A DNA stretch of 11,118 nt from a virus (lineage: Duplodnaviria > Heunggongvirae > Uroviricota > Caudoviricetes): IMG/VR virus record IMGVR_UViG_2675903255_000015; one strand, written 5' to 3'. This document shows, piece after piece, positions 1,449-9,380 of the stretch. Position 1 is the first letter of the stretch. Every line of letters starts with the position of its first letter. A program made the translations under genes and the position numbers. The notes beneath the pieces were generated by a model that saw nothing but the letters and a program-made list of their open reading frames with translations, made no database searches and had not been told where the DNA came from.

Positions 1449-1480
1449 AAAATAAAAACAAAAACCCGCCGAAGCGGGTT
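1449..1480 (-). terminator. rho-independent terminator downstream of hok
   Basis: On the minus strand: AACCCGC-TTCG-GCGGGTT (7-bp stem, TTCG tetraloop) followed by TTTGTTTTTATTTT. The plus-strand reading has no T-tract after the hairpin, so it is unidirectional for the minus strand. Confidence 0.7.
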
Positions 1481-1548
1481 AAGTGCGGGTGCGTTGAGGA
1501 TGCCTGACACATCAGAGGTGGCGAGGGATTTCTCCCCCGCCTGGTCTC

Positions 1549-1704
1549 TTACTCCTCAGGTTCGTAAGCTGTGAAGACAGCGACCTCCGTCTGGCCGGTT
1601 CGGATTCGTACCTCGCAGAGGTCTTTCCTCGTTACCAGTGCCGTCACTATGACGATTAAACAGATGACGATCAGGGCGATTAACATCGCCTTTTGCTGCT
1701 TCAT
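1549..1704 (-). CDS. hokD: Hok-family type I toxin (HokD/RelF-like small membrane peptide, 51 aa)
   Basis: ATG at 1704 with AAGGAG 7 nt upstream. Product MKQQKAMLIALIVICLIVIVTALVTRKDLCEVRIRTGQTEVAVFTAYEPEE matches the Hok/Gef family as recalled, closest to HokD. The track ORF 1549..1761 is an in-frame upstream extension from ATG 1761 (GAGG SD), possibly a mok-like leader reading frame. Confidence 0.85.
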   Translation of the reverse strand: MKQQKAMLIALIVICLIVIVTALVTRKDLCEVRIRTGQTEVAVFTAYEPEE

Positions 1705-1744
1705 AGCCTGCTTCTCCTTGACCTTTCGGTCCGTAAGAGGCAAT

Positions 1745-1803
1745 CTATATGTGACGAGCATATAGGGGCCTCACTTCGATTTATAGTCGGGTGGGGCTTT
1801 TAT
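1745..1803 (+). ncRNA. candidate Sok-like antisense RNA to the hok leader (speculative)
   Basis: Plus-strand hairpin GCCTCAC(1768-1774)/GTGGGGC(1791-1797) followed by TTTTAT (1798-1803) is a plus-strand-specific intrinsic terminator antisense to the hok leader and mok-like start. A TTGACC -35-like hexamer sits at 1718-1723, but no convincing -10 was found, so the 5' end is not defined. Confidence 0.3.
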
Positions 1804-1896
1804 CTATCTGCCGTTGGTGTTCATGCCCGAGGCAGATAGCCTCAAGCACCCGCAGCAATCCTACTTAACTCTGCCGTTACAGCAAACCGTTTTCGC

Positions 1897-1920: not shown

Positions 1921-2039
1921 AATGAATTCAGTTCACCTGGCGAGGCTTAGCGTACAATTTTTTCCGTTTTGTGAGCTGCCCCTACATGCCGCTGGCGCGG
2001 CATCCGGAAAAAGAATCCACGTCCTGAAGGACGAGGATG

Positions 2040-5091: not shown

Positions 5092-5920
5092 GGTTTACCC
5101 CTTTGCTGACTGGTTTAACCTGCGCCCTGACGTGATTTACGTGACGGGCGAATTTCTGCTCCCACTGAATCTGCGTAAACACTTTCCCCTCCGCTGCCCA
5201 GTAGTCCCGGAAGGCGGCAAGTTCAGCAGGTGTAAATTCTGTCTCCGGCAAAGCCATCCCCCACAACGCAGCCCGTCGTCGAAAATCCCGTGACGGATAC
5301 CAGCTATCGCTCATCGGGAATTTTCCGATGGGTTCGCTCAGGCCATACAGGAATACAGGGGGGGCTGCCTGTAACGACAAAACTTCCTGCTCACTGGTCG
5401 GAGCACTCTCGCGTGCGTTATGTGTGGGGTTTAGATCTTTGGGTTCCTTTGGGTTCCGTGATCCGTTTTTGGGTGTCTTTGATGGAAAATTTGGGTGTCT
5501 TTGGTTATTTTCCATGCAGCTAAGAGTTCTGTTTTTGGGTCTGTTTTGTGCTGAAACATAACCATTTTCGGTACTGTTTTTATTAACAGCACCAATTTTA
5601 CCCACCTTTAAAGACTCCCGTTTTTGGGTGTATTCAGGCTCGGCAACACTTTCTTCTACACCGATAAGTCGGTACACCACAATTTGCTTTGTTCTGCCTT
5701 TTCTCTCACCGGTATCAACAATTAACCCAATCTCCATCAGGTGTCGTAAGCTGTCCTGCACAGTCTTTTTGTTCAGTTCCGTTACTTCTGCCAGTGCAGA
5801 TACAGACGGGTATGCACACAAATCGGCACCGCACATATCAGCAAGCCAGGTCAATACTGACTTACTGGATGAACTGCCGGTTTTCACCTTTTTAGCCCAT
5901 CGTAGTGCATCGATACTCAT
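4880..5920 (-). CDS. replication initiation protein O-like (lambda O family)
   Basis: Preferred start ATG at 5920 (AGGGGGG SD 4 nt upstream; [12 protein letters not shown]...); the track's 5995 start is TTG. C-terminal domain [58 protein letters not shown] matches recalled lambda O (...[53 protein letters not shown]). N-terminus is wHTH-like. The 3' 212 nt overlap the P ORF out of frame. Confidence 0.85.
   Translation of the reverse strand: [346 protein letters not shown]
5438..5635. repeat. ori-like iteron array plus AT-rich segment inside the O gene
   Basis: Six copies of TTTGGGT(G/T)(T/C)C-type repeats at 5438, 5448, 5468, 5490, 5534 and 5623 (two identical TTTGGGTGTCTTTG at 5468 and 5490), with an AT-richer stretch at about 5551-5620. 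In phage lambda the replication origin with its O-binding iterons lies inside O; here the array encodes the K/N/P-rich linker of O. Confidence 0.6.
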
Positions 5921-8966: not shown

Positions 8967-9022
8967 TTTCTGGTGACGTTTGGCGGCATCTGTTTGCCCA
9001 TGAACTGATGTCCGCCCTTTTT
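8967..9022 (+). ncRNA. dicF: DicF-like small regulatory RNA
   Basis: TTTCTGGTGACGTTTGGCGG... matches the recalled 5' end of K-12 DicF. It ends in a GGCGG...CCGCC stem followed by CTTTTT, and sits about 170 nt upstream of dicB, as in Qin. Confidence 0.7.
8982..9022 (+). terminator. intrinsic terminator forming the DicF 3' end
   Basis: GGCGGCATC...GATGTCCGCC stem (8982-9016) followed by TTTTT (9018-9022). Confidence 0.65.
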
Positions 9023-9191
9023 AAAGTGAATTTTGTGATGCAGTGAATGCGGCTAAGCGCACGCGGAACAGTTAAAGCTAAAAACAGTGTTATGGGTGGA
9101 TTCTCTGTATCCGGCGTTAATTGTTAACTGGTTAACGTCACCTGGAGGCACCAGGCACCGCATCACAAAATTCATTGTTGAGGACGCGATA

Positions 9192-9380
9192 ATGGAAACG
9201 TTATTACCAAACGTTAATACGTCTGAAGGTTGTTTTGAAATTGGTGTCACTATCAGTAACCCTGTATTTACTGAAGATGCCATTAACAAGAGAAAACACG
9301 AACGGGAGTTATTAAATAAAATATGCATTCTTTCAATGCTGGCCCGTTTACGTCCGATACAAAAAGGATGCTGGCAATGA
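9192..9380 (+). CDS. dicB: cell-division inhibitor DicB (62 aa)
   Basis: ATG at 9192 with GAGGA upstream. Product METLLPNVNTSEGCFEIGVTISNPVFTEDAINKRKHERELLNKICILSMLARLRPIQKGCWQ is near-identical to recalled K-12 DicB. The track ORF from 9087 is an upstream in-frame extension. Confidence 0.85.
   Translation: METLLPNVNTSEGCFEIGVTISNPVFTEDAINKRKHERELLNKICILSMLARLRPIQKGCWQ

Follow-up and report, generated by a model that had tools for sequence, protein, structure and literature searches.

Does the hok gene of this prophage belong to a complete type I toxin-antitoxin cassette, or is it a leaderless gene of the kind carried by the Qin prophage of Escherichia coli K-12 MG1655, where hokD follows relB-relE in the relBEF operon and relBE abuts the hok Shine-Dalgarno sequence? 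The question arose from a sequence-only reading of the window (the whole 11,118-nt stretch of viral DNA analysed here), which had found neither relE nor relB upstream of hok and had seen in the locus the arrangement of functional hok/sok systems. We consider it highly probable that positions 1449-1886, in a lambdoid prophage of E. coli O157:H7, carry a hok/mok/sok cassette that is complete and structurally intact and would work by a mechanism of the R1 or hokW type. Each feature named in the earlier reading is in the sequence, no more than a few bases from the position given there. All elements of the cassette are present at the coordinates given in Table 1, are conserved among relatives and are predicted to pair. 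The cassette is of a kind already known: type I toxin-antitoxin systems have hok/sok as their founding example, and the gene has been named and is annotated in RefSeq.

Results

Prophage setting of the hok locus

Positions 1400-1900 of the window are 100% identical to many E. coli O157:H7 chromosomes, in which RefSeq annotates the 156-nt coding sequence as 'hokD: type I toxin-antitoxin system toxin HokD', and the window itself is a lambdoid prophage (OI-57 type) of E. coli O157:H7. In the literature the hok gene goes by the name ckf (z2054), a named STEC marker in OI-57 (PMC8565820) that adjoins paa/adfO, with adfO and ckf reported always to occur together in OI-57. The window has paa/adfO (an AcfC-family adhesin gene) upstream of hok and, downstream of it, rem-like and ydfU-like genes, rusA, a late-regulator region, tRNAs and lysis genes, while replication genes, cI/cro-like genes, ydfC and dicB lie farther on in the prophage. 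The cassette is free of IS elements, frameshifts and stops. LC567826, the record of a phage of this prophage type (PPompW), annotates the 213-nt in-frame ORF as 'gef: phage maintenance protein'. A count made in 2006 put the hok genes of O157:H7 at thirteen (PMC1635323), and the enrichment of hok in prophages is already documented.

Several features outside the cassette were recorded as well. The paa/adfO gene occupies 2040-2798 on the minus strand, directly upstream of the hok promoter; it encodes a periplasmic solute-binding-like protein (Pfam SBP_bac_11, 118 bits) and is followed by a terminator-like hairpin at 2033..2020. At about 5161-5163 the window is without the 1.3-kb IS1203 (IS3 family) that interrupts the prophage replication region in PV15-279 (NZ_AP018488.1), and, IS1203 aside, the two sequences are 99.9% identical. 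A DicF-like small RNA at 8968-9017 on the plus strand falls slightly short of its Rfam gathering score (43.5 bits against 48, E = 6e-7) and lies in a stretch that is 95% identical to the K-12 Qin dicF region; directly after it comes a sub-threshold STnc100-like match (9006-9211, plus strand, 32.5 bits).

Table 1 Coordinates of the elements of the hok/mok/sok cassette in the window.
Feature	Position	Strand	Description
hok promoter (putative)	1858..1886	-	-35 TTTGCT (1886..1881), 17-nt spacer, -10 TAGGAT (1863..1858)
Full-length hok mRNA (predicted)	1458..1851	-	About 394 nt, from tac element to intrinsic terminator
tac element	1840..1851	-	GGGUGCUUGAGG; 5' end of the mRNA; invariant in alignment A3; pairs with fbi (full-length) or ucb (trimmed)
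Leader stem-loop	1804..1839	-	CUAUCUGCC ... GGCAGAUAG; folds; helix 2, 99.8% paired, 2 pairs compensatory
ucb (anti-Shine-Dalgarno) box	1789..1797	-	GCCCCACCC; pairs with mok Shine-Dalgarno in the full-length fold, with tac after 3' trimming
mok Shine-Dalgarno	1769..1772	-	GAGG, 7 nt upstream of mok ATG; read from the sequence
Sok-target hairpin	1744..1766	-	CCUAUAUG, loop CUCGUCA, CAUAUAGA; holds mok AUG; predicted in both folds
mok ORF	1549..1761	-	ATG 1761..1759; 70 codons, in frame with hok (Mok-Hok fusion frame)
dcb	1741..1737	-	GCCUC; pairs with mok Shine-Dalgarno in the 3'-trimmed fold
hok toxin CDS	1549..1704	-	51 aa, MKQQKAMLIALIVICLIVIVTALVTRKDLCEVRIRTGQTEVAVFTAYEPEE; RefSeq hokD WP_032287685.1
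UACG at Hok codon Tyr47	1563..1566	-	Matches TadA A-to-I editing motif (Tyr to Cys); candidate editing site
fbi element	1487..1499	-	CCUCAACGCACCC; pairs with tac in MFE and centroid structures
hok mRNA intrinsic terminator	1449..1480	-	AACCCGCUUCGGCGGGUU then U-run; from terminator scan and fold
Sok promoter (putative)	1718..1746	+	-35 TTGACC (1718-1723), 17-nt spacer, -10 CAATCT (1741-1746); aligns with sokW promoter
Sok antisense RNA (predicted)	1753..1801	+	About 49 nt (51 nt if the end is 1803); ends mapped from sokW and sokC

Relation to K-12 hokD and relBE

Remains of relBE were sought in the window by tblastn with K-12 RelB and RelE, where the best match had E = 1.5, and by blastn with relBE DNA, which returned 11-14-nt chance words only. 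Because RelB, RelE and relBE DNA are all without a match in the window, an overlooked relBE is excluded, in agreement with the earlier statement that no relE or relB frame precedes hok. A relBEF-linked hokD arrangement with relBE hidden from view was likewise rejected, there being no relBE similarity and a full leader in place.

Collinearity with Qin, at 86% identity, extends from position 3 of the window to position 1718, and the similarity ends exactly there. Between this point, which is the hok Shine-Dalgarno sequence, and the terminator, that is, through the coding sequence and fbi, the window and K-12 hokD are 98.9% identical over 279 nt; the two HokD proteins differ by one amino acid (I17 in the window for T17 in K-12), and both loci have the downstream neighbours rem, ydfU and Q. 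Upstream of the Shine-Dalgarno sequence the two are unrelated, the window carrying a full leader where K-12 carries relBE, and K-12 hokD is without the tac and ucb elements, the mok start, the Sok promoter and the Sok RNA, all of which the window has. The suggestion that the locus has the layout of functional hok/sok systems is upheld in that it possesses the full hok/mok/sok architecture and is not of the leaderless, relBE-linked K-12 type. To judge from this comparison, K-12 hokD is a truncated derivative that has lost tac, ucb, the mok start and sok, which agrees with a report that hokD was inactivated by genomic rearrangement (PMC12214031). The window would then represent the complete, ancestral form of K-12 hokD, with the relBE junction placed at 1718.

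Reading frames of hok and mok

The toxin encoded in the window covers the full 42-position profile of Pfam PF01848 (HOK_GEF) with 77.2 bits (cut-off 22, E = 7e-22). The leader ATG at 1761 and its GAGG, which the sequence-only reading had taken for an in-frame start with a Shine-Dalgarno sequence, do open a 70-aa ORF in frame with hok, with GAGG at 1772..1769. Relatives for comparison were obtained by scanning viral contigs with this 70-aa ORF, which yielded 80 loci representing 57 distinct sequences, 81-100% identical and including the window and 933W (alignment A3). The mok ATG and GAGG are invariant among the 57. An in-frame mok leader is not unusual, because mokC/hokC of K-12 and mokW/hokW of 933W are annotated alike.

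The position of the mok ATG is fixed in these 57 distinct prophage hokD-like loci (window 1742-1761; A3 columns 126-153), and small indels place it in all three frames relative to hok. There is an in-frame 70-aa mok-hok fusion in 21 of the loci, a 68-codon mok ORF that overlaps hok, as in R1, in 8, and in the other 28 a leader of 19 codons, the UGA of which shares bases with the AUG of hok (AUGA). The Mok peptide sequence is evidently not conserved across the alignment, and only translation through the region appears to be kept. The occurrence of three mok frames among near-identical prophage loci would imply selection on ribosome transit and not on the Mok peptide.

Leader elements and predicted folding of the hok mRNA

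The hok transcript would start at G1851, which fits the start of the match to Rfam model RF01794 ('sok') at the same position. This match spans the leader (1851..1702) and all 157 model positions with 103.9 bits (gathering score 59, E = 3e-23). RF01794 describes the hok-sense leader, ending in the hok AUG; because it is built on the hok-sense strand, the match certifies the hok leader and not, by itself, an antisense RNA. A Sok on the minus strand, as the strand of the Rfam match would have it, was rejected since the model is the hok-sense leader, which puts the antisense RNA on the plus strand.

Folding of the 396-nt RNA 1853..1458 gave -168.6 kcal/mol (z = -8.05), with none of 100 shuffled sequences as good. 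In the full-length fold tac (1851..1840) pairs with fbi (1499..1487) and the mok GAGG pairs with ucb. The tac and fbi elements, which the sequence-only reading had left to be sought in an alignment with known leaders, are both present, are predicted to pair and are identical to those of hokW. The Sok-target hairpin (helix 5) has 2 compensatory pairs among the 57 relatives, and its loop carries CUCG, a YUNR motif. In R1 hok/sok, a YUNR loop motif is the kind that is recognised by the Sok 5' tail. When the last 44 nt are taken off (1853..1502), the predicted fold has tac paired with ucb, GAGGC paired with dcb, and the target hairpin with the mok AUG in its stem. The predicted switch from a closed to an open form would reproduce the conformations of R1 hok mRNA (PMC9841398).

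A weak match of isrK, a small RNA of the Salmonella Gifsy-1 prophage, to the hok 3' UTR and terminator (1459-1540, minus strand; 24.9 bits, gathering score 50, E = 0.049) is probably explained by the terminator and was dropped.

Predicted antisense RNA opposite the mok start

On the plus strand, a hairpin with a U-tract terminator had been proposed at 1768-1803, and it is found with a stem core at about 1769-1796 followed by CUUUUAU at 1797-1803. The RNA 1753-1803 folds at -21.1 kcal/mol (z = -4.9), and none of 200 shuffled sequences folds as well. Its 5' end, G1753, lies six bases downstream of the Sok -10 and also follows from K-12 sokC, whose annotated start is 8 nt inside mokC. The predicted Sok has a single-stranded 5' tail (GACGAGCAUAUAG...) complementary to the mok start and the target loop, followed by the G+C-rich terminator hairpin and the U-tract. 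The short antisense RNA of the earlier reading is retained as a prediction over the mok start; its length of roughly 60 nt is replaced by about 49 nt on the homology with sokW and sokC. The window's Sok would be shorter than sokW (71 nt) because its terminator hairpin is 21 nt shorter.

Every hairpin of an mRNA is mirrored on the other strand, and the plus-strand hairpin could be nothing but the mirror of the ucb/mok Shine-Dalgarno hairpin, with no antisense RNA and with control by mRNA folding alone. It would be in keeping with this that the Rfam 'sok' model matches the hok-sense strand and that simple scans called no plus-strand promoter or terminator; the terminator scan did not list the Sok hairpin, probably because its stem is imperfect. 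We regard this explanation as very improbable. The AAAA run next to GCCCC (hok strand) is unpaired in the mRNA fold, yet it is conserved across the relatives, which fits a role as the U-tract of a Sok terminator. TTGACC stands at the right distance and is aligned with the promoter of sokW, and both sokW and sokC are annotated at the homologous position. In the study of Takada et al. (2021), which used growth assays among other tests to validate hokW-sokW, HokW was toxic and was neutralised by sokW transcribed from its own promoter, a -10 mutant of sokW ('pro-less') unmasked the toxicity, and sokW RNA was seen on northern blots and was gone after mitomycin C (PMC8621323). The mutagenic primers YO-421 and YO-422 of that study place the sokW -10 at TAACCT(A), and three more of its primers (YO-349, YO-350 and, in its homology arm, YO-351) are exact matches to the leader and 3' UTR of the window (PMC8621323).

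A literature search returned nothing on 'sokD' and no transcript data for this specific copy, and no RefSeq feature lies under 1716-1803 in the genomes that carry the window's Sok class.

Conservation and distribution

When the window structure was mapped on the 57 relatives, 97.4% of cells were standard pairs, compared with 37-42% when partners were slid by 1-3 columns, and 16 pairs were changed on both sides, compared with 8.2 ± 1.6 in shuffles (0 of 500 reached 16); most of the relatives are closely related, so these figures overstate independent support and partly reflect shared ancestry. The tac/fbi helix (helix 1) is 97.9% paired and nearly invariant, with little covariation, and so neither adds to the case nor detracts from it. 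In helix 4, which is the ucb/Shine-Dalgarno helix and also the stem of the Sok terminator, pairing is 100%, and covariation between loci with short and long Sok hairpins is seen at 3 pairs.

The Sok segment (window 1716-1803) falls into at least two hairpin classes, of about 49 nt and about 71 nt, with several 5' recognition tails. Among the 57 distinct sequences the short class has 17 members, including the window, and the long class 40, including sokW. Of 5426 complete E. coli genomes, 618 have the window's Sok class, mostly in one place each; at an identity of at least 99%, the Sok segment is shared by 591 complete genomes, among them O157:H7, O145, O111:H8, O103:H2 and other serotypes. Loci of hok overall occupy up to 10 places per genome, and the occurrence of this Sok class once per genome suggests insulation from co-resident paralogues.

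Promoter strength, possible toxin editing and the prospect of a silent cassette

The window shares the hok -10 hexamer TAGGAT with two near-identical relatives; most of the other relatives in A3 have TAGAAT. Given TAGGAT, hok transcription may be weaker in the O157 copy. The Sok -10 (CAATCT) has no T at -12, but A at -11 and T at -7 are there; the corresponding hexamer of K-12 sokC is CACTCT, so CAATCT is no sign of decay. A consensus promoter scan of both strands of 1700-1900 found neither the Sok nor the hok promoter, misses that we do not count against the promoters because the validated Sok promoters (sokW, sokC) also fail the thresholds.

The non-consensus hexamers and the empty scan would also be expected of a cassette that is complete but functionally silent, a chromosomal relic in decay, comparable to the hok loci of K-12, in which the promoters or Hok translation are too weak. 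Chromosomal hokA, hokB and hokC are described, in a preprint that summarises earlier work, as having failed post-segregational killing and rifampicin tests (bioRxiv 10.1101/2025.08.07.668861). The toxin of the window, moreover, has Tyr47 where Cys seems to be needed. The equivalent Tyr of K-12 hokC, hokD and hokE, a conserved position, is reported to be recoded to Cys by editing (6% in hokD; PMC12214031), so the toxicity of the window's Hok may depend on A-to-I editing of its RNA at a low level. A silent relic is nonetheless unlikely in our judgement, given that all RNA elements and both ORFs are intact, with pairing preserved by compensatory changes, and that the same Sok class is maintained nearly unchanged across several STEC serotypes. 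The annotated K-12 sokC -10 is, besides, equally non-consensus, and the paralogous hokW-sokW is functional with hexamers that are similarly weak. The sequence features suggest that this copy may be active.

Discussion

By homology to R1 hok/sok and to hokW-sokW of 933W, we infer how the cassette would be transcribed and processed, how its toxin would act and which role it may have. A weak promoter would give a stable hok mRNA of about 394 nt, which would be translationally silent at full length because tac at its 5' end pairs with fbi at its 3' end and ucb hides the mok Shine-Dalgarno sequence. Slow 3' trimming would remove fbi, whereupon tac would capture ucb, exposing the mok Shine-Dalgarno sequence and start codon and forming the Sok-target hairpin. 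For as long as the locus is transcribed, the unstable Sok RNA from the opposite strand (about 49 nt, 1753-1801) would pair with the mok start region, block translation of mok and the coupled production of Hok, and trigger cleavage by RNase III; the antitoxin activity of sokW partly needs RNase III and Hfq (PMC8621323). Should Sok synthesis stop, through loss of the element, a block of transcription or prophage induction, ribosomes starting at mok would read into hok, and the 51-aa membrane toxin, or its 70-aa in-frame form, would depolarise the inner membrane.

Plasmid stabilisation, one of the precedents named in the earlier reading, is not the most fitting one, because the setting is a prophage and prophage maintenance or the timing of lysis is more pertinent. 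Deletion of hokW-sokW halves phage release (PMC8621323), and in a prophage setting the precedent of hokW, with earlier lysis and a higher phage yield on induction, or a part in prophage maintenance would fit better. A more specific proposal combines three suggestions: that the window's Sok represents a distinct short-hairpin specificity class, with a divergent 5' recognition tail, that insulates the cassette from the numerous hok/sok paralogues beside it in STEC genomes, that mok is kept for ribosome transit only, and that the role is perhaps the timing of lysis on induction. We put this combination forward tentatively and doubt that all of it holds together.

The locus carries little weight as a discovery, belonging as it does to a textbook family, being a named STEC marker and having a close paralogue that has been characterised. 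It is of modest use for annotation: RefSeq annotates the hok coding sequence only and gives mok and Sok no feature in over 600 genomes. Where ckf is listed as a 'virulence factor', this is corrected too, the product being the self-directed toxin of a toxin-antitoxin module.

Comparison with characterised hok systems

The closest studied relative is hokW/mokW/sokW of the Stx2 phage 933W (Sakai Sp5, AF125520), itself in an O157 lambdoid prophage, which is homologous throughout the mRNA and matches 93% of a query of 412 nt at 85.7% identity. The leader stem-loop and the hok Shine-Dalgarno sequence are identical in the two, as are tac and fbi; mokW is likewise in frame with 70 codons; both Hok proteins have 51 aa, with 46 of 51 residues identical; and sokW occupies the same position as the window's Sok. 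The differences are concentrated in the Sok/target region. The 5' recognition tail of Sok reads GACGAGCAUAUAG... in the window and GUUCAGCAUGGAUU... in sokW, and the promoter TTGACC-17-CAATCT stands against TTGCCT-17-TAACCT. The place in the prophage differs as well, the window locus lying between paa/adfO and rem/ydfU/Q.

In K-12 hokC (gef)/mokC/sokC, too, mok is in frame with hok, and the Sok 5' end lies 8 nt from the mok ATG, as it does in the window. Its sokC is also short (59 nt as annotated), and the sokC -10 has a C at -12 like that of the window's Sok. An IS186 adjoining its 3' end disrupts the K-12 hokC copy, which has no matching fbi region; hokC further differs from the window in several Hok residues and in its chromosomal, non-prophage site.

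The founding member, hok/mok/sok (parB) of plasmid R1, has the same set of elements as the window, with Sok over the mok start, and the same predicted switch. Its mok lies in a different frame from hok. R1 Hok has limited identity to the subfamily of the window (HokW and R1 Hok are 44% identical), and the R1 system, which is borne on a plasmid, has been shown to mediate post-segregational killing.
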